Origin: an uncultured Chloroflexia bacterium | Lineage (GTDB): Bacteria > Chloroflexota > Chloroflexia > Thermomicrobiales > CFX8 | NCBI GenBank assembly: GCA_963709995.1 | Contig: CAVPYN010000017.1 | Location: forward strand, 197,509 to 261,508 | DNA: 64,000 nucleotides | Reading direction: 5' to 3' | Shown: positions 3,393-44,320 of the stretch, one piece after another | Layout: each line of letters opens with the position of its first letter | Numbering within the stretch: position 1 is the stretch's first letter | Program-made: the position numbers and the translations under genes | The notes under the pieces: model-generated | What the model saw: only the letters and a program-made list of their open reading frames with translations | Told to the model about the DNA's origin: nothing | Databases searched by the model: none

Positions 3393-4034
3393 TCAGCCCC
3401 TGGCAAACAGTGGGCAGGACAGGCAGTACGGCAGGAGCCGGTATGGCTCGCTGACCGGCGCTGGAACTCCCGATTCCTGAAGCAGTTCAATCGCGACGGC
3501 CAGTGGCAATCCGACCACGTTACAGTAACAACCATCGAAGTGGGCGACCGGAACAAACTCCTGATCCTGGATTGCGTAGCCGCCGGCCTTGTCGAAAGGT
3601 GTTCCGCGTTGAATCGAATCGGCGATTTCATCGTCCGCGTACGGCCTCATCGTGACCCGCGTCGTCGTCGAGCCGACGCGCAACTGTCCCTGTTTGCTAA
3701 CCACCGCGACACCGGTTGTCACCTCGTGTGCGCGTCCGCGCAACTCCTGCAACATCGCAATCGCCCCGGCCGCATCCTCAGGCTTTCCCAGCAAACGGCC
3801 ATCCAGGCAAACGATCGTATCGGCGGCGAGAACCGGAGTGCCAGGATTCCGGCTAGCGACGACGCTGGCCTTGGCCCGTGCCAGTGCGCGAGCGAACGCC
3901 TCGGGGTTGTCTACAGATCCGGGCGCGGGCTCATCAATGTCAGCTGGAATGATGGTGAATTGCAGCCCAAGCATCTCAACGAATGCGCGTCGGCGTGGTG
4001 ATCCCGATGCGAGAATAATTCGCGCCATCATCAA
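3393..4034 (-). CDS. maf: Maf-like nucleoside triphosphate pyrophosphatase (septum formation protein Maf)
   Basis: ILASGSPRRR at the N-terminus and a KAGGYAIQ motif. Its start overlaps the stop of the upstream methyltransferase (ATGA-type overlap at 4031-4034). Confidence 0.85.
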   Translation of the reverse strand: MMMARIILASGSPRRRAFVEMLGLQFTIIPADIDEPAPGSVDNPEAFARALARAKASVVASRNPGTPVLAADTIVCLDGRLLGKPEDAAGAIAMLQELRGRAHEVTTGVAVVSKQGQLRVGSTTTRVTMRPYADDEIADSIQRGTPFDKAGGYAIQDQEFVPVAHFDGCYCNVVGLPLAVAIELLQESGVPAPVSEPYRLLPYCLSCPLFARG

Positions 4035-24026: not shown

Positions 24027-25542
24027 ATGACCGGCGGCAAACGAGTGGCAATCGGAATGATCTCGCACGAAACAAACACCTTCTCACCGATTCCAACAGA
24101 TATCACCGCATTCGCGGAGCAGCGCTACGGGATCATCGAAGGCGCTGCCGTTGTTTCGAGTCTCGGTGGAACGAAGACCGGAATCGGCGGCTTCCTGGAA
24201 GTCGGAGAAACGCATGGCTGGGAAATGATCGGGACGGTCGTTGCCTCGGCAACACCATCAGCAAACGTGAGCTCGCGCGCCCATGATGCCCTCAAAGGGA
24301 AGTTGATCGACCACCTCGTGGCGGCAGGCGAACTGGACGGCGTCCTGCTCCACCTGCATGGCGCGATGCTCTCGGAGAATGCGCCGGATGCCGAAGGAGA
24401 TATTTGCGAGGCGGTCCGGGAGGTGATCGGCCCTGCGATCCCGCTGATCGTCGAGATGGATCTTCACGGCAACATCACGCCGGAGTTCTGCGCGGTCGTC
24501 GATGGCGTCATCGTCTACGACACGAATCCCCATATCGATACCTACGAACGTGGCGTCGAAGCCGCGAACCTGATGGCTGCGATCCTGAATGAAGAGATCC
24601 TGCGTCCCGGGGTTCACATCTCGAAACCGCCGATGCTCCCACCAACGATCAACATGCGCACCGCTGAGGGGCCGATGGTCAAGCTGCTGGAACGCGGGCG
24701 AGAGTGGGAATCCGGCCCTGGCATCGTCAACGTTGCCGTGTTTCCCGGATTCCCCTACGCCGACTTCGCTGGCGCGGGGACCTCGATCGTCGTGACGGCG
24801 ACCGATCCCGATCTGGGGCAGCGTTGCGCGCGAGAGATGGGAGCAGCTCGCCTGGAATCTGCGTGATGAGTTCCTGAAGCCGATCCCACCGGTTGATGAA
24901 GCCCTCGAACGGGCACTGATGATCGCGGACAACGATACTGCCGGGATAGGTCCTGTCATGCTTGCCGATGTCGCCGACAACCCGGGCGGCGGGGGATCCG
25001 GGGATACGCCTGAGCTAATCCACGAACTGGTCCGCCGGGGAGCACGGGGCGCGGTTGCCTGCCTGTGGGATCCCGAAACGGTCGACGAAGCTCATATCGC
25101 CGGTATTGGCGCGGAACTGGAGTTCAATCTCGGCGGCAAGGCAAGCTCCCTCTATGGGCCACCCGTTGTGGCCCGGGGCATCGTACGCTGTCTTTCGGAC
25201 GGCATCTTCATCGGTTACGGGCCAGTCGTCCGCGGGCTCACGGTTCGCTGCGGCAGGACCGCGCTGATTGATGTCGGTGGACTGAAAATCGTCGTCACGA
25301 CGGTCCGGCATGCCGCGAATGACCAGGGCTACTTCAAGATGGTTGGCATCCAGCCAGAGCGAGAACCCTTGTTGGTCATCAAGTCACGCGGTCACTTTCG
25401 GGCCGACTTTGAACCGCTCGCCAGGACAATCATCGAGGTGGACGCGTCGGGAGCCGCAAACCCGAACCTTGATCGCTACGATTTCCAGCATGTCCAACGC
25501 CCGATCTGGCCGCTCGATCCGGAGACGAGTTGGGACGCTTAA
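24027..25542 (+). pseudogene. M81 (MlrC/microcystinase C-like) peptidase, one frameshift near 24851
   Basis: The N-domain runs from ATG 24027 (MTGGKRVAIGMISHETNTFSP...) to the stop at 24866. The C-domain continues in the frame of ORF 24919..25542 (WNLRDEFLKPIPPVDEALERALMIADN...MLADVADNPGGGG...). The ORF-track extension 23481..24026 is antisense to the methyltransferase and I ignored it. Confidence 0.8.
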
Positions 25543-26028: not shown

Positions 26029-26257
26029 CTTCGAGCCTCTTCTTCCACGTAGCATTCTCGTCCTGAGTGGCGCTACGATCTATTAATCCGGCTGCGCAGG
26101 TCGCGCCCACTGCTCAGGAGATCATCGATTTCCAACCGAACCCGCGAGAGCTGATCATGTTCACTCGCGACAAATCGGGTGTACGGAGACAGTGCCTCCC
26201 GCACCCGCCGGATCGAACGGGCTATCTCCGCGTGAAAACCGTCTTCGAGCACGTCGC

Positions 26258-27814
26258 TCAGTTGTTGTTCGAGTTCGGCGGAGCGCGTCGCAGTTCTGTG
26301 CGGGCAGATCTCCTGCGAGCCGGCAGAATCAGCAGTCCCAGACCCGCGACGGTCGCCGCGGCAAGGATCCCCGTGACGTCGGCGGCGGCGGTCGTGGCAA
26401 GCGCCACGACAACCGCGCCAAGTGACACGGCCCCGGCCTGGGCGACCGCTGTCTGAGCGATGGCAGAACGGACGTTCTCGGCGATGTGAGCGGCCTCCGC
26501 ACGCTGATCGTAGCGATCGACAACCTCATCCGCCTGCCGCGAGACCTGGTTGATCAACGTCTGACGATCCGCATGAAAGCGCGTCCCGATATCGCCCACC
26601 ATATCGGCACGGTAGCGTTCCAGCGTCTTCCGGTCGAGCATCGCGTTGACCGCTTGCCAGAGTCGCAGATCCTGGGCCACCATCCAGTCGATCAGTTCTT
26701 CAACCGTCTGATCGATCTGCTGCTCGGTGCCCGCCACGACATCTCGCTCGAAGGCGCTTCGCGTCTGCTCGGAACGCATGAGATCAAAGACGCTGCCGAT
26801 CCGGATGTACTCTTCGAAGAAACGGTCGGCTCGCTCATTCAGCCGGTGGACGATATTCTCGATGCGTGTCTCAAAAATGGCGAATTCGCGTGTCGTTTCC
26901 GACTCATGGCTGTCGATGAACGTTTCGATGCGCTCGATCGTCGCCCGATCTTCCCCGAGCATCGCAAGACGCTCATCGGCAACGCTCGCGTAGCGTTCCA
27001 GCAGACGTTCGGCTACGCCGATCGGGTTCAGCAACTTCAGCCGCAGGCGTTCCGTTTCATCGAGGGTCGCGAGGATGTAGTCCCTCAATGGCGCAAACCT
27101 GCCATTCGCATCGCCACGTTCGGCTAGCCGGGCGGAAATCGGGAACACCAGAGGATCGATAGCCAGCAGTTTGCGTCCATTCTCGGCAATGAAATCCAGC
27201 ACATCCTGAAGCTCGGATTCGCGCTCGAAGAGGTCGATCTTGTTCAACACGAAGACGATCTTTTTGCCCCATCGCTGGATTTCTTCGAGAAAGTCACGTT
27301 CCGACTCGGTGAACGGCCGGTCTGCCGAGGTGACGAAGAGCACCAGATCAGCTCTGGGGACGAAGTCCCGCGACAGCATTTCGTGTTCGCGAATGATCGC
27401 GTTCGTGCCGGGCGTGTCGACGATGTTGATCTCCTGGAGAAACGGGGCTGGATTGGTGCGCACGATCACACCATCCGGGGTAGTCTCATCTGGCCCCTCT
27501 TCACCGTAGGTCAGTACATGAATCCGGCTGGTTGTCGGGGTGACGCCCTCGGGCATGATCGGTTCGCCAATGAGGGCATTGATCAGCGCCGACTTGCCCG
27601 AGTTGAACTCACCGGCGACGACAAGGAGAAAGAGTGTTTCGACATTGCGCCGGGCTTCACGAAGTAATGTCAGGTCTTTCGCGACCGATTCAACCCGTGG
27701 AAAGCCCCGCAATAGCCCGTCAGCCGCGGACAGGATCGCGATGACATCATCGCGGAGCTCTTGTTGTCCTGGTTTCAGGTGATAAACCGTCGGACTGGAT
27801 TTTGGCTCTTCCAT
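26258..27814 (-). CDS. bacterial dynamin-like GTPase; the C-terminal ~70 aa continue in another frame down to 26073
   Basis: P-loop VVAGEFNSGKSALINALIG, DTPG and NKID. A hydrophobic paddle (AVSLGAVVVALATTAAADVTGILAAATVAGLGLLILP) follows. After about 26285 a second frame reads SAELEQQLSDVLEDGFHAEIARSIRRVREALSPYTRFVASEHDQLSRVRLEIDDLLSSGRDLRSRINRS*, with its stop at 26073-26075. Confidence 0.8.
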   Translation of the reverse strand: MEEPKSSPTVYHLKPGQQELRDDVIAILSAADGLLRGFPRVESVAKDLTLLREARRNVETLFLLVVAGEFNSGKSALINALIGEPIMPEGVTPTTSRIHVLTYGEEGPDETTPDGVIVRTNPAPFLQEINIVDTPGTNAIIREHEMLSRDFVPRADLVLFVTSADRPFTESERDFLEEIQRWGKKIVFVLNKIDLFERESELQDVLDFIAENGRKLLAIDPLVFPISARLAERGDANGRFAPLRDYILATLDETERLRLKLLNPIGVAERLLERYASVADERLAMLGEDRATIERIETFIDSHESETTREFAIFETRIENIVHRLNERADRFFEEYIRIGSVFDLMRSEQTRSAFERDVVAGTEQQIDQTVEELIDWMVAQDLRLWQAVNAMLDRKTLERYRADMVGDIGTRFHADRQTLINQVSRQADEVVDRYDQRAEAAHIAENVRSAIAQTAVAQAGAVSLGAVVVALATTAAADVTGILAAATVAGLGLLILPARRRSARTELRRAPPNSNNN

Positions 27815-27902: not shown

Positions 27903-28319
27903 TTGGCTAACCACCCTGCAAATCTCGCTCTCCGCTTTCTACTCGAAGTCGTGGCTGTCTCGGCGCTCGCATTCTGGGGCTGGGCATGGGGCGGCTGGTA
28001 TCGCTGGCCGCTGGCGATCGGGATCGCCGCCGCTGCGATGGCAATCTGGGCGATCTTCCGAACGCCGGGAGACGCGTCGAGCGGCGGCCAGGGCATCGTG
28101 CCAACCCCGGGCCCGATCCGACTTGTGATTGAACTTGGCCTGTTTGGGCTGGCGGTGGCCGCGCTTCTCACCGCGCACGCAAATAGCCGGGCCACGACAA
28201 TGGCGCTTATTCTCGCCGTCCTCGTCATCGTCCACTACGCACTTTCCTGGGATCGAATTTTCTGGCTTGTTGGCCGATCGGCTGGCGCCCAATCGAAATC
28301 AGACCCTGACTCGCACTGA
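27903..28319 (+). CDS. small membrane protein (DUF2568/YrdB-like, tentative)
   Basis: LRFLLEVVAVSALAFWGW...WAIFRTPGD... pattern with 4 hydrophobic segments. TTG start. Confidence 0.6.
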   Translation: MANHPANLALRFLLEVVAVSALAFWGWAWGGWYRWPLAIGIAAAAMAIWAIFRTPGDASSGGQGIVPTPGPIRLVIELGLFGLAVAALLTAHANSRATTMALILAVLVIVHYALSWDRIFWLVGRSAGAQSKSDPDSH

Positions 28320-28468
28320 TTGTCGACTTGGGCCAACCAAATGGAGAGCGGTGGCGATGAAACCCGCCAGACCTTGACGACCGTCGCTCGGTGGGGGTAG
28401 AAGTTAATGGTCAATAGATCGAATGTTGCCCCATCTTCTGTGGGGTGATGCACGCAAAGGAGGTTCGA

Positions 28469-28705
28469 ATGGCCGACGATCGAAGGCCAGTGACGATCGA
28501 GTACTGCACGTCTTGAGGGTATCTTGAGAAAGCCGTCAGTTTGACGGAAAAGCTACTCGACGAAAAGAGCGACAAGATCAGCCAGGTTACACTTATCCCA
28601 TCCGGTGGTGGCGTCCATGAGGTCACATACGGGGATACAGTCGTCCACTCAAAGCAGGAGACTGGCGAGCATCCGAATCCGGATGCGGTTCTGGCCGCGA
28701 TCTAA
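28469..28705 (+). CDS. SelW/Rdx-family selenoprotein (CxxU), in-frame TGA at 28514-28516 read as Sec
   Basis: AAGGAGG at 28457-28463, ATG at 28469. Translation: MADDRRPVTIEYCTS-U-GYLEKAVSLTEKLLDEKSDKISQVTLIPSGGGVHEVTYGDTVVHSKQETGEHPNPDAVLAAI*, 78 codons. It matches the bacterial SelW-like pattern (I/V)xYCxxC/U...RA..L...L....V.L.P..GG.FEV...G..V.S(K/R)...G.FP. A hairpin follows the TGA and a terminator follows the TAA. Confidence 0.75.
28533..28547 (+). promoter_or_regulatory. candidate bacterial SECIS apical hairpin
   Basis: CCGTCA-GTT-TGACGG starts 16 nt after the UGA. The loop contains GU. Possible extra pairing GAG/CUC flanks it. Confidence 0.4.
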
Positions 28706-28739
28706 TCAGATCGCAACCTCTTAACCACTGCTAGCATGC

Positions 28740-28776
28740 ATCCCGCGCCAACTGATCCGGCGCGGGATCTGTTTTC
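28740..28776 (+). terminator. rho-independent terminator of the selenoprotein gene
   Basis: TCCCGCGCC-N9-GGCGCGGGA followed by TCTGTTTT. Confidence 0.6.
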
Positions 28777-28859
28777 ACGATGGATTTGCGATAGACACCA
28801 GCCTCGGAAGGTGCGATGATTAGGTGGTACTATCGTCTTACTTTACTTAGGGTGTCATC

Positions 28860-29552
28860 GTGATTCACGCCGTCGACCAGACCATTGCGACAATCCAGGA
28901 CGGACCGGTCAGGGGTCGTGGAGCCAGCCTTCTCGTCGTCGATGAGGGCCGGTTTCTCGTTGCCGCTCGACCTCCAATTCCCGCGCCATCGTGCACGTTG
29001 ATTAACCTCACCGGTGTCGGTGGATGGGTTGAGGCAGGCGAGAGCTTTTCTGAAGCCGCGCTGCGGGAAACGGTTGAAGAAACCGGAGCGCCTGTCACTC
29101 TGATCAATCTCAAAGATACCTTGATCGTTCATGGCCCGGACACGATCGAAGACGTTTGCATTGTCGGCGAGATCGGTCCCGCCGCGATCGTGTATTGCCG
29201 GCTCGGGACCCCGCCATTCGATCCGTGGTCAGACGATTACGATGCGGTCGTACCGGTCACGGTGTATGCTGGCGCGCTCGTCGGCCGTCCGGTTGTCGCC
29301 GCTCCCGAGGAACATCCGTTCTTTCTCTGGTTGCATCCAGAGCAGCTCATCGCGCTAGCTGACGGCGAACTGCCACTCGAGTTCCTGCTGTCTGACGGCG
29401 CGAAGATCGAGGGACACTTCGATCCCGGGGATGAACGCGTTATCGTGCGCCTTGGAGACAGTATCCCAGCGTTGCTCAGCGCCCTCGGGCCAGCGGCCTA
29501 TGCCTTCCTGGGGCGAATAGCCCGCCTTTCTCAGCCAACCCGGGTCGAATGA
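28860..29552 (+). CDS. NUDIX hydrolase family protein
   Basis: Nudix box GGWVEAGESFSEAALRETVEETGAPV. GTG start. The stop overlaps the start of the next gene (ATGA). Confidence 0.75.
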   Translation: MIHAVDQTIATIQDGPVRGRGASLLVVDEGRFLVAARPPIPAPSCTLINLTGVGGWVEAGESFSEAALRETVEETGAPVTLINLKDTLIVHGPDTIEDVCIVGEIGPAAIVYCRLGTPPFDPWSDDYDAVVPVTVYAGALVGRPVVAAPEEHPFFLWLHPEQLIALADGELPLEFLLSDGAKIEGHFDPGDERVIVRLGDSIPALLSALGPAAYAFLGRIARLSQPTRVE

Positions 29553-30034
29553 CGATCTACGCGTTCGAAGCTCAGGAATCGTGGCTCCCGACTGCAATCG
29601 GAATGGCCTGCGCCTCGGTCGAATTCGATCAGGAAGCGAACATTCTCACGCTGCTGCTCTACGAGGCCCGATTTGGCATCGAAACCGAATATGGAGAGCC
29701 CGAGCGAGCGATTTCGATGTCGGGCATCTGGCGCATCGAACAGGAAGATACAATCATTGCCGCCTCCGGAGATCTCAACGACCCCGATCGGGAATTACAT
29801 CTCGATCGACTCGTCGGGCGCGAGCTCGTGCGAGCGGACGTCAGTCATCCCGGTTACGATCTGAGTCTGCATTTCACTGGTCCATTCATCGTGCGGTGCT
29901 TCCCCTGCGACGCGATGCAGTTCAACGAAGATCCGACCGACGACGAGATCTTCGTTAGCTGGTGGGTCGATGGCATCGACGTTCCCGACGATTGGGAAGA
30001 ACCAAATGCAGCATTCTTCTCAACTGAGGTTTGA
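29549..30034 (+). CDS. hypothetical protein, paralog 1 of a tandem pair
   Basis: 161 aa. It shares the block WRIE...L..LVG..L....V..PGYDLSLHF.....VRCFP with the next gene. Acidic C-terminus. Confidence 0.6.
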   Translation: MTIYAFEAQESWLPTAIGMACASVEFDQEANILTLLLYEARFGIETEYGEPERAISMSGIWRIEQEDTIIAASGDLNDPDRELHLDRLVGRELVRADVSHPGYDLSLHFTGPFIVRCFPCDAMQFNEDPTDDEIFVSWWVDGIDVPDDWEEPNAAFFSTEV

Positions 30035-30537
30035 CGATGCGGTTTCGAGAAGCACTTGAGATACAGGCTGCCCTGGCGCCGAAGATTACGAGTTCCATCT
30101 GCACTCAGGTGTCGATCGGCATGGCCGAGTCGCTGATCGTCGATCTAGGCGATCTCGCGCCTGTGGCAGGCGGGCAATTCGCCGGCGAGTACGTCCTCGC
30201 GATCGAGTGCCCCTGGCGCATCGATGCGCCGGAGATTCCTGTGGTTGGCTGGGATGACAATGAAGAGGACGTTGCCGATCTCGCGACCGTTCTGATTGGC
30301 GCCTCCGTCAACGAACTTGATGTGCGAAGACCGGGCTTTGATTTGACCATTCAGTTCTCGAATGAACACCGGCTGCGCGTTTTTCCAGATTGTCGTGCCT
30401 ACTATGTTGACGAAATGTCTGGCGGCGCTTTGCCCTGGAGGATCGGCGGGCGGGGCATCGCTGAACCACCGGCGCAGGTGATCCTGGACGATGCCGATGA
30501 CGTGTCCGGAGAAGATCTGGGCGAAGAGTCCTTGTAG
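30031..30537 (+). CDS. hypothetical protein, paralog 2 of a tandem pair
   Basis: 168 aa with WRID...L..LIG..V....V..PGFDLTIQF.....LRVFP and an acidic C-terminus. Its start overlaps the previous stop. Confidence 0.6.
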   Translation: MTMRFREALEIQAALAPKITSSICTQVSIGMAESLIVDLGDLAPVAGGQFAGEYVLAIECPWRIDAPEIPVVGWDDNEEDVADLATVLIGASVNELDVRRPGFDLTIQFSNEHRLRVFPDCRAYYVDEMSGGALPWRIGGRGIAEPPAQVILDDADDVSGEDLGEESL

Positions 30538-41341: not shown

Positions 41342-41827
41342 ATGGTTGTTCGACGGGTCAGCCCGATGACCGATTTCGCGTATCTCTTTGATCAGATGGA
41401 TCGAATGGCCCAGGAAGCGATCGCAGGCAGCGCTCGCGCCCGTGTGGCGACGCTCCCGGTTGATGTTTTCGACAAGGGCGAGGAACTTATCGTTCAGGCA
41501 TTCGTCCCGGGCATCCACGCCGATTCGCTCGACATCACGGTCGATGACGGCGTTCTGACGATCGCTGGCACCTTCCCGGATCTCTATTCGAGTGACGAGT
41601 CCGGAAACTGGTCCTGGTACACCAGGGAATTGCGGAGCGGGTCATTCCAGCGCAGCTTCAACCTGCCCTACAAGATTGATCTGGAAAGCGTCTCCGCCTC
41701 GGTTGAAGACGGCATTCTGAAGCTCACGATGCCGAAAGCGCCCGAAGCGAAGCCACGACGCATCCAGGTCGGCGGCGGCACGACCGAAGTGCATCAGGTC
41801 GAAGCCAGCACGACCAGCGACAACTAG
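41342..41827 (+). CDS. Hsp20/alpha-crystallin family small heat-shock protein
   Basis: Alpha-crystallin domain (PVDVFDKGEELIVQAFVPG...F.RSF.LP...V.ASVEDGILKLTMPK). GGAGGG RBS. Confidence 0.9.
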   Translation: MVVRRVSPMTDFAYLFDQMDRMAQEAIAGSARARVATLPVDVFDKGEELIVQAFVPGIHADSLDITVDDGVLTIAGTFPDLYSSDESGNWSWYTRELRSGSFQRSFNLPYKIDLESVSASVEDGILKLTMPKAPEAKPRRIQVGGGTTEVHQVEASTTSDN

Positions 41828-41845
41828 TTTCACCCATCACGAACT

Positions 41846-41881
41846 CAGAGAGCCAGGCGGGGATCCCCGCCTGGCTCTCTG
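41846..41881. terminator. 17-bp perfect palindrome between convergent hsp20 and protease genes
   Basis: CAGAGAGCCAGGCGGGG-AT-CCCCGCCTGGCTCTCTG. Confidence 0.6.
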
Positions 41882-41902
41882 TCTCATAATCCCAAAACGT
41901 CC

Positions 41903-44320
41903 TTACGAAGCCAACGCGTAGATCTCAAGATTCCGGAACTGGAACGTGGAACTTGAGGCTCCTTCGGTAGCATCCAGGTTGAGCGTCAGCATTCCCACCT
42001 GGCCGCTTCCGGGGCCGATGTCGTGAGTGATCGAGCCGGCTATTTCTCCATTGACTTCAAGCCAGAACTTCTGGCCTTTTGCGACGACTCCGATCTGATG
42101 CCAGTCCGAGGCCAGCGGATATGGTTCGAGCGCTTCGGCACCCGCGATTTCAGTTGTTCCAGCGACCGTCTCGTAGACGACCGCGACGCCTACCACACTG
42201 GGACCCTCGTAGACGAGACAGAACCAGTAGCCGAAGTCGTTGTAGAGCGGATTGGCCTCGTTCGGATCAGCACGAAAGAGAAGGCAGGCCGCCCCGGCGC
42301 CAGATGTCTGAGTCGCGCGCGCTTCGAGCGAGTAGTAAGCATCTCCGAATGTGCCTTCGGCAAGCACCTGCAGGAATCCACCTGGCGGGTCCGTCACCTG
42401 ATACACGCCGTCCACCGGACCGCCCACATCGCCATTCGTCGTTTCTAGTTCTGGCCACATCGAAAAGTCGGCTCGCCCAAGCAGCTCGCCAATCGCCGGC
42501 GGAGGATCGGCCGGACCGCCGCCGTTGCCTGAATCTTCGGATGGAATAAGCTCGTAGCGCCACTGATGATAGTGGACGCCAACATTACCGGCTTCAACCA
42601 GGAAGCCCTCGGGATTGCCCGGCGTGTAGGTCAACACTCTCCGCTCGAACGCCTGCGCCAGCACGACTCGCTCGGTGCCGCCGACCTTCACCGTTGCCCA
42701 ATACGCCTCGGTGATCGGGTATCCTGTCGCGAAAAAGGGATTGGTGAAGAGCTGGTCCTGGACGTACTGACCGTTCTGCCAAACAGTCCCGGACGAGTTC
42801 ATGAACTGCCAGAAGACCGAGGCCACCCGGTGCTGGGTCTCGGGCACATAGTGGTCGGCAGTCACACCGTAGGTCGCCAGCGATTGATCGTTGCCGACAT
42901 TGCCAGCGCGGTCCACAGTTGATGTGATCAGTGCCGGCCCGCCCTCCAGTTCGGAGGAGAGCGCCGGGGCGCCGCCATGGGGCGGCAAAGAACGTAACCC
43001 GGCAAAGGTGACGTAGGTTGGGCCGTTCGGATCGTCGCCGTCGCCAGCGACGTTTATCTCTGCCGGATTGTGCTGCTCGAATAGATCGTTGCCGAGTTGC
43101 AGTTCTCCGGTCATCATCTCCACGGTGGCGAGGCCGTTGGTGACGTACCAGTTCGAGTTGGCGTCGCTGCTTGGATCGGTGATCTCCATTCGCGATTTTT
43201 CCTGGTAGAGCACGGCACGAAAGCCATTCGGCGCTTCGGCGTAGGGTTCGAGCATTACTTTGGTAATCGGTTGCGGCCCCCACATCCAGGTGCGTGGCTC
43301 AACCTGCTGGGCTACCGGCTGGTCAGTGCGTTGCCAGACGCGATCGTATGCGCCCTCGTCACCGGGGATGTCCGTTAGAAAGTGATTGAGCTGGCAGTCG
43401 AACTCCAGGCAAGCGCCGAGGAGGTCGTAGATCAGCGGCAAATCGATTCGAACGGTGAAGTTGTAGTTTTGATTCTCCCATGATTCGACCCCAACAACGG
43501 CCAGGTCACTCGCTCTCCACACTGCGGATCCGCTCTGACCCTGGAACGAATCGATTTCATGAACCAGCCAGTCATCATCGACATCGACAAATGCTGGTTC
43601 ACTGCCGATCCACTGTGTAAATCGGGTCTTGTCTCCCGGGTAGCCGCTCGTTGTCGGATTGAAGCTCGCGGACTGCAACTCACTCGTCGTCAGGACGCCG
43701 ATGGTCAGACTACCGACAACTTCCTCCACGCTTGTATCTGAAACAGTGATCAACGCGTAATCCCAGGGAGAGTTCACCGCGTCGTTCTCCACGTACTCAT
43801 CCGGAAACCAGATTGTTTCTGGCACAAGCACTCCAAAGGGCGCGGAATCCCCGTTCATCCCTGGAATGATTTCAACCTCATCGATCCAACCGCCAAATCG
43901 CTCAACGCTCCAGACGCAGTGCGCTGCCGTCAACAACACATCCGGCCCGACGAACGTGGCCGTGCATCCGGAGGCGAATCCCGGCTCCAGGCTCGCGTCA
44001 TAGCCAATAATCTGGGCGACCGCGGAATACGGGTATATGGTGGTGTCGCTCACCTGAATCCGACTATCCGGCCCGATGACGATCTGGGGATGCCTCTCCT
44101 CATCATCTACGTGTTGCAATGTCGTTCGATCGTGATGTGAAACCGCGTCGGCGCCAAAATGCTTGACGTTCAAGGGTGGTGATTCCAGGCCCTCGAACCG
44201 GAACTCACTCAGGTCGGGAGCCTTTTGCGACCCGCTCTCCGCGCCAACCGTTCCCGCGCTCGCGACCAGCGTCACGATCAACGCAAACGCCAGCACTACC
44301 CGCACCCCTCGCACACCCAT
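41903..44320 (-). CDS. secreted trypsin-like (S1, Glu-endopeptidase-like) serine protease with large C-terminal extensions
   Basis: Signal peptide, a catalytic His context (LLTAAHCVW) and a Ser context (GQSGSAVW). The C-terminal ~200 aa look like a ConA/LamG-type beta-sandwich (inference). Confidence 0.8.
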   Translation of the reverse strand: MGVRGVRVVLAFALIVTLVASAGTVGAESGSQKAPDLSEFRFEGLESPPLNVKHFGADAVSHHDRTTLQHVDDEERHPQIVIGPDSRIQVSDTTIYPYSAVAQIIGYDASLEPGFASGCTATFVGPDVLLTAAHCVWSVERFGGWIDEVEIIPGMNGDSAPFGVLVPETIWFPDEYVENDAVNSPWDYALITVSDTSVEEVVGSLTIGVLTTSELQSASFNPTTSGYPGDKTRFTQWIGSEPAFVDVDDDWLVHEIDSFQGQSGSAVWRASDLAVVGVESWENQNYNFTVRIDLPLIYDLLGACLEFDCQLNHFLTDIPGDEGAYDRVWQRTDQPVAQQVEPRTWMWGPQPITKVMLEPYAEAPNGFRAVLYQEKSRMEITDPSSDANSNWYVTNGLATVEMMTGELQLGNDLFEQHNPAEINVAGDGDDPNGPTYVTFAGLRSLPPHGGAPALSSELEGGPALITSTVDRAGNVGNDQSLATYGVTADHYVPETQHRVASVFWQFMNSSGTVWQNGQYVQDQLFTNPFFATGYPITEAYWATVKVGGTERVVLAQAFERRVLTYTPGNPEGFLVEAGNVGVHYHQWRYELIPSEDSGNGGGPADPPPAIGELLGRADFSMWPELETTNGDVGGPVDGVYQVTDPPGGFLQVLAEGTFGDAYYSLEARATQTSGAGAACLLFRADPNEANPLYNDFGYWFCLVYEGPSVVGVAVVYETVAGTTEIAGAEALEPYPLASDWHQIGVVAKGQKFWLEVNGEIAGSITHDIGPGSGQVGMLTLNLDATEGASSSTFQFRNLEIYALAS

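Follow-up and report, generated by a model that had tools for sequence, protein, structure and literature searches.

The question raised by this locus is whether a TGA codon at positions 28514–28516 of the + strand, which cuts a short reading frame in two, terminates a small protein or is read as selenocysteine (Sec). The locus lies in a 64-kb stretch of DNA from a Thermomicrobiales-like organism, and this stretch is referred to here as the window. A preliminary description of this stretch, made from the letters alone, had proposed that it holds a hidden selenoprotein gene of the SelW/Rdx family with a candidate SECIS hairpin behind the TGA. Judged from its reading frame, its family, its orthologues and the RNA hairpin downstream of the TGA, the locus is very probably a genuine Sec-encoding SelW-like gene, in which UGA codon 16 specifies selenocysteine.

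The interrupted reading frame and its surroundings

The coding sequence of the predicted SelW-like/Rdx selenoprotein occupies 28469–28705 on the + strand, from an ATG at 28469 to a TAA at 28703–28705. Its translation is MADDRRPVTIEYCTS*GYLEKAVSLTEKLLDEKSDKISQVTLIPSGGGVHEVTYGDTVVHSKQETGEHPNPDAVLAAI*, in which the part downstream of the interruption begins with GYLEKAVSL and the end of the gene reads VLAAI*. The TGA at 28514–28516 (codon 16) is the only internal stop in this frame and, when it is read as Sec, translation yields the 78-residue product with a C-T-S-U motif that had been described before, the predicted selenocysteine taking the last place of the motif (C13-T-S-U16). In a mechanical list of open reading frames, the + strand at this gene is represented by just two pieces, of 23 and 54 aa. 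The gene itself stands as first described, whereas its beginning has to be shifted: position 28457, previously given as the start, is that of the Shine–Dalgarno site, and the coding sequence begins at 28469. A GTG further upstream (28445) was also considered as a start codon and rejected, since the Shine–Dalgarno sequence directly precedes ATG 28469 and conservation among orthologues is seen only from M-A-D onward.

Translation would start at ATG 28469 behind a strong Shine–Dalgarno sequence, AAGGAGG (28457–28463, + strand), which was found as previously reported, lies 5 nt before the ATG, and has an invariant GGAGG in seven orthologues. Further upstream on the same strand, a promoter-like −35 box, TTGACG (28374–28379), is followed after 18 nt by a −10-like TAGAAGT (28398–28404). 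The seven orthologous upstream regions are poorly conserved apart from these promoter-like elements, with TTGAC (28374–28378) invariant in all of them and the G, T, A, and last T of the −10-like element invariant in the seven-sequence alignment. TAGAAGT is a weak match to TATAAT, and a simple sigma-70 scan did not call the −35 box at 28374. Taken as a pair, TTGACG and TAGAAGT look like a promoter belonging to the gene itself, a presumed function that is suggested by their conservation.

The strong intrinsic terminator that had been noticed after the TAA was recovered at 28740–28776 (+ strand). It consists of a G+C-rich, 10-bp stem, AUCCCGCGCC/GGCGCGGGAU (28740–28749 paired with 28759–28768), closing a 9-nt loop, and then CUGUUUUC; it folds with a minimum free energy (MFE) of −26.4 kcal/mol (z = −2.63), and a pattern scan calls its inner part. 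Orthologues carry a G+C hairpin of differing sequence and a T-run at the equivalent place, and the positions of the Shine–Dalgarno sequence, the −35 box, and the terminator are all conserved among them. Because it has a promoter-like pair and a terminator of its own, the gene appears from its sequence to be monocistronic and separately transcribed.

The gene resides in a conserved neighborhood composed of a dynamin-like GTPase, a DUF2568 protein, the Rdx protein, a NUDIX protein, and two small DUF6188-like proteins, and the neighboring proteins are 55–81% identical to their counterparts on orthologous contigs. The NUDIX gene and the two small genes come after Rdx in every orthologous locus that is long enough. 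The two small genes (29549–30034 and 30031–30537, + strand) are adjacent, with overlapping stop/start junctions, and are weak paralogues; the second is DUF6188-like, and a single orthologue query matches both, with 66% and 25% identity. An HSP20 gene and a gene for an 805/812-aa protein adjoin the GTPase/Rdx block in one orthologous contig (L001, 1504–4500), while in the window they are found at 41342–44320, about 13 kb downstream and on the opposite side, and the region has therefore been rearranged between relatives. In the same contig L001, DUF2568 and Rdx are separated by the insertion of an NHL-repeat gene.

Two genes near the locus are frameshifted in the window. In the dynamin-like GTPase gene (26076–27814, − strand), the frame changes near 26285, orthologue residues 1–510 being encoded in frame −1 and residues 511–580 in frame −3. 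In the gene of an MlrC-like metallopeptidase (DUF1485 + MlrC_C; 24027–25539, + strand), it changes from frame 3 to frame 1 at about 24808–24845, and the orthologue in L006 is one protein of 505 aa. The GTPase is intact, with 580 aa, in Logan ERR12037370, an independent assembly with an identical neighboring protein of 161 aa; thus, the defect in the window probably reflects an indel introduced in assembly or a mutation specific to the strain. With two frameshifted neighbors, the window sequence is not error-free, and this lends some support to the view that the TGA arose through a wrong base call, faulty assembly, or a recent mutation and that the real codon is TGC or TGT in the gene of an ordinary CxxC Rdx protein. 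However, the defects of the window are indels and not substitutions.

Family membership and conservation of the TGA

Profile searches were performed with U replaced by C. The Pfam family PF10262 (Rdx) matches residues 8–78, on both sides of the TGA, with E = 1.7e-18 and a score of 67 bits where the cut-off is 22.6, while the NCBIfam model TIGR02174 (CXXU_selWTH) scores 57.3 bits against a curated cut-off of 34.2. As both models exceed their curated cut-offs, the assignment to the Rdx/SelW family made in the preliminary description is upheld, and the predicted gene product is a SelW-like protein of the Rdx family. The top-scoring NCBIfam model, NF041051 (SelTWH_Campy), gives 67.5 bits, under its equivalog cut-off of 88, and the protein therefore falls outside the SelTWH_Campy orthologous group. 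Moreover, a profile of eight orthologues matches the PDB structures 2fa8 (Atu0228), 3dex (SAV_2001), 2obk, 2oka, 2ojl, and 2p0g and, more weakly, mouse selenoprotein W (2npb). The matches to the structures of Cys-form Rdx proteins, with E-values from 1e-13 to 1e-7, extend over nearly the full length and point to a thioredoxin-like fold for the predicted protein.

In the profile alignments, ieYCTScGy is placed on IRYCTQCNW of 2fa8 and on IEYCTQCRW of 3dex, so that the TGA corresponds to the second Cys of CxxC, in agreement with what had been suggested. By this alignment, the CxxU redox motif directly follows the first beta-strand, and the predicted Sec takes the place of that second Cys. The six Cys-form Rdx proteins share I.YCT.C and LIPS.GG with the window protein; however, they contain CxxC and have about 105 residues, whereas the window protein has a predicted Sec and 78 residues and lacks their C-terminal extension.

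A search of a large protein collection returned nine relatives, eight of which are only 50–54 aa long and must, therefore, have been given a start that lies 3′ of the motif; some of these short relatives carry the JGI label “predicted Rdx family selenoprotein”. When contig DNA was read upstream in frame, TGA was found at the homologous codon in all seven relatives so read, preceded by the conserved peptide M-A-D-(D/E)-(R/K)-(R/K)-P-(V/M)-T-I-E-(Y/F)-C-T-S. When GTDB was scanned with a single genome for each species, ten further loci were obtained, again with TGA in every case (10/10), in MAGs of Thermomicrobiales, Chloroflexia, “Chloroflexota”, and Anaerolineae, with 41–86% identity. The orthologues thus number 17 (16 distinct sequences), from seven independent metagenome assemblies and ten GTDB MAGs, and, across this range of protein identity, TGA occupies the codon in 17/17 and a Cys form at codon 16 occurs in none. 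The 15 closest orthologues conserve (V/M)TIE(Y/F)CTS upstream of the TGA, whereas the GY...LIPSxGGVHE region downstream of it is conserved in all 17. By its best matches, the window belongs to a Chloroflexota bacterium within or close to Thermomicrobiales.

The preliminary description had asked for a comparison of TGA with TGC in relatives and had held that a miscalled base at 28514–28516, or relatives with Cys and no conserved hairpin, would speak against a selenoprotein. The opposite was found, i.e., TGA in orthologues from unrelated samples and assemblers and a hairpin conserved with covariation. Since the TGA and the frame on both of its flanks are kept in orthologues, a base-call error or a pseudogene is excluded by this comparison. 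Moreover, the hairpin is under selection at the RNA level, for which a Cys form would have no need, and the probability left to an erroneous or freshly mutated TGC or TGT is vanishingly small.

A different possibility is that the TGA is a true stop, and that the gene is decaying or split, with nothing expressed or only the 54-aa reading frame that starts at a TTG (28541–28705). The 50–54-aa products called for all close relatives would agree with this view, as would the fact that no Sec machinery was found in the window. However, the 15 codons before the TGA are strongly conserved as protein, including the catalytic Cys13, and the conserved Shine–Dalgarno sequence fronts ATG 28469 and not the internal TTG. 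This TTG sits within the hairpin, and a fragment without CxxU would be devoid of the active site of the family. Furthermore, a pseudogene is incompatible with conservation over 41–86% identity. Termination at the TGA is therefore considered very unlikely, and the Sec-encoding gene is the reading preferred here.

The expectation that automated callers miss the gene proved right, the eight closest database entries all being C-terminal fragments. In Logan ERR12037370, no gene is called in the gap at 3487–4026 (541 nt) that holds the locus of the Rdx selenoprotein gene; thus, annotation can drop the gene completely. In public databases, the gene and all its close relatives appear as fragments of 50–54 aa that lack the active site or as “Trp” forms, or do not appear at all.

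The hairpin downstream of the TGA

The 6-bp hairpin with GU in its loop, proposed to begin 16 nt after the UGA, is present and starts exactly at that distance. It has the sequence CCGUCA-GUU-UGACGG and spans 28533–28547 on the + strand, 28533–28538 pairing with 28542–28547, and pairing, covariation, fold energy, synonymous constraint, and the bacterial SECIS (bSECIS) model mark it as a candidate SECIS core. The loop is GUU on a stem of 6 bp or, with the A–U pair open, AGUUU on a stem of 5 bp. In isolation, the hairpin has an MFE of −7.8 kcal/mol in the window and of −9.5 to −10.2 kcal/mol in orthologues.

When 17 sequences are aligned without gaps, all cells (100%) of the six upper-stem pairs are paired, and the pairing holds in 17/17 orthologues. 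A compensatory change from C:G to U:A is found in the window itself, where it corresponds at the protein level to a change from Ala..Ala to Val..Thr; another, from C:G to G:C, occurs in L019, and A–U is replaced by G–U in L013. Over the 17 sequences, this amounts to two pairs with compensatory changes and one G–U change, and, because most stem pairs never vary, the covariation evidence comprises two or three events only; independent events are few, and the sequences are related.

Synonymous sites are constrained in the same place. Codons +6, +7, +8, and +10 after the TGA (GCC, GCC, AGU, and GCG), i.e., four of the five hairpin codons, exhibit zero synonymous variation, while none of 25 codons elsewhere is restricted to a single synonym (4/5 versus 0/25; Fisher p = 1.8e-4). 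These 25 are the other four- or six-fold degenerate, well-conserved codons, each of which uses two to five synonyms. Pairwise nucleotide identity averages 92% within the hairpin and 70% along the aligned coding sequence.

The consensus bSECIS has a 3–9-nt apical loop and a 4–16-bp upper stem, with G in the first or second position of the loop, mostly as N1-G-[G|U]-N-N2 in which N1 pairs with N2, a distance of 16–37 nt from the UGA to the loop, and an MFE of −7.5 kcal/mol or lower (PMC13188914). The hairpin at 28533–28547 agrees with this model in all four constraints, the distance from UGA to loop being 21–22 nt. The window loop reads A-G-U-U-U, in which the A (N1) pairs with the last U (N2), and orthologues have AGUCU, AGGUU, GGUCU, and AGUGU.

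An extended lower stem (columns 4–12 with 37–45), which appears in the MFE fold of the window, was rejected, since it is only 70.6% paired over the orthologues and many of its pairs are broken. The 62-nt region as a whole folds no better than shuffled sequence (z = −0.5) and, given that the lower stem is not conserved either, the case for an RNA element rests on the 15-nt hairpin. Rfam gave no match in the window at the gathering score, and none in 28300–28900 at E ≤ 10.

The hairpin resembles the paradigmatic SECIS elements of E. coli fdhF and fdnG in that it is located within the coding sequence, close behind the UGA on its 3′ side, and has a conserved G-U in a small apical loop. In E. coli, the upper stem has a bulged U, the minimal element is spaced by 11 nt, and the lower helix is longer. 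The stem in the window, by comparison, is a perfect helix of 6 bp that contains no bulge and starts 16 nt after the UGA, and a lower helix is not conserved. The E. coli SECIS binds SelB, and the system has been summarized (PMC1794560). By analogy, the window hairpin may also serve to recruit SelB.

A mechanism can be proposed on this basis. At UGA codon 16, the 6-bp hairpin located 16 nt downstream, with its A-G-U-U-U loop, would act as a bacterial SECIS and recruit SelB-GTP with Sec-tRNA(Sec), so that selenocysteine would be inserted and termination avoided. The product would be a 78-residue protein with a predicted thioredoxin fold and a C13-T-S-U16 redox center, which presumably alternates between the selenol/thiol and the selenenylsulfide states, as in a thiol-dependent oxidoreductase. 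In this scheme, the binding of SelB, the incorporation of selenium, and the redox chemistry are all deduced, as is the occurrence of selA, selB, selC, and selD at other places in the genome.

Probable selenocysteine decoding and the SelW-like family

The UGA might also be decoded without Sec, either by a suppressor or near-cognate tRNA that inserts Trp, Cys, or Gly, by reassignment of the codon, or by programmed read-through stimulated by the hairpin. An apparent example of a Trp form exists among the nine relatives, the ninth of which (P0009; L020 2251–2505, LGVF01144711.1) is a distant, low-GC SelW-like homologue deposited as “CTSW”. However, TGA stands at the motif position in its DNA, and behind it comes another, different small hairpin whose loop has GU; hence, the deposited Trp is a translation-table artefact, in which a Sec codon was mistranslated under genetic code 4. 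In the window, TGA is the normal stop of the DUF2568 (28317), NUDIX (29550), and Na/H exchanger (30561) genes, and the orthologue alignment of the Na/H exchanger stops at its TGA. As neighboring genes end at TGA, UGA is not reassigned in this organism. Moreover, the codon falls on the catalytic Cys/Sec column of the family, for which many Sec forms have been documented, and the hairpin fits the N1-G-[G|U]-N-N2 pattern of SelB-type bSECIS elements. Decoding of the UGA by any of these other routes is thus deemed highly improbable, and insertion of Sec is retained as the preferred reading.

The components required for Sec insertion were sought in the window and in related loci. ARAGORN finds no tRNA genes, tRNA-Sec included, in the 64-kb window; in 18 loci, its calls are either unrelated or dubious. 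Among these calls is a “tRNA-???” with a four-base anticodon (cgcg) within the DUF2568 coding region of L006 (4506–4598) and L016 (7547–7639), which are identical loci, and it is most likely a false positive. A Pfam scan for SelA, SelB, and SelD among 20 window ORFs of suitable size returned unrelated families only, and tblastn with the E. coli SelA, SelB, and SelD proteins gave no hit with an E-value below 0.015 over the window and 22 related loci (223 kb of flanks; 287 kb together). The query sequences were validated as full-length matches to PDB 8uzw, 5lzb, and 3u0o. For a genome of several Mb, of which 64 kb is a small part, absence of selA, selB, and selD from the window is expected and says little. 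A scan for pairs of ORFs joined by a TGA, with gene-like GC3, yields 125 candidates in the window and is not discriminating at 60% G+C. The Sec trait has been documented in the same phylum, in Dehalogenimonas (PMC4918011), while nothing relevant on the use of Sec in Thermomicrobia/Thermomicrobiales or Sphaerobacter was found in the searchable literature.

Bacterial SelW-like selenoproteins with CxxU have been known since 2005 from the Sargasso Sea selenoproteome and from bacterial genomes; they constitute the most abundant selenoprotein family of the Sargasso Sea set, with 48 genes, and are listed in several bacterial phyla, and their Cys homologues have been noted to be few or absent in organisms that use Sec (PMC1088965, PMC1794560). 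The family is among the commonest known bacterial selenoproteins. The window gene resembles these SelW-like proteins in domain, size class, and position of CxxU, in a Sec-UGA near the 5′ end with a small SECIS hairpin, with G in the loop, immediately after it, and in the few or absent Cys forms among close relatives. It differs from them in its occurrence in Thermomicrobiales/Chloroflexia, its C-T-S-U motif, a hairpin that is near-invariant within the clade, and its conserved neighborhood. Thus, the gene is a lineage-specific addition to the known SelW-like family and no novel system, and it does not point to a new mechanism.

The gene may mark a Sec-only SelW-like clade that extends across Thermomicrobiales, Chloroflexia, and Anaerolineae and has an unusually minimal SECIS, a near-invariant hairpin of 15 nt with neither bulge nor lower helix; this is a tentative proposal, given slightly less than an even chance. 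If it were true, Sec decoding would be a common trait in a largely aerobic soil and thermal lineage in which the searchable literature does not document it, and the hairpin would also dictate the protein sequence of helix 1, which is A-A-S-L-A and admits V..T only as a compensatory pair. The locus illustrates how an RNA element inside a coding sequence can constrain both synonymous sites and the choice of amino acids. Moreover, the gene represents indirect evidence that UGA is read as selenocysteine in this Thermomicrobiales-like organism and in its relatives. Such decoding predicts selA, selB, selC, and selD, a requirement for selenium and, probably, further selenoproteins in these genomes.
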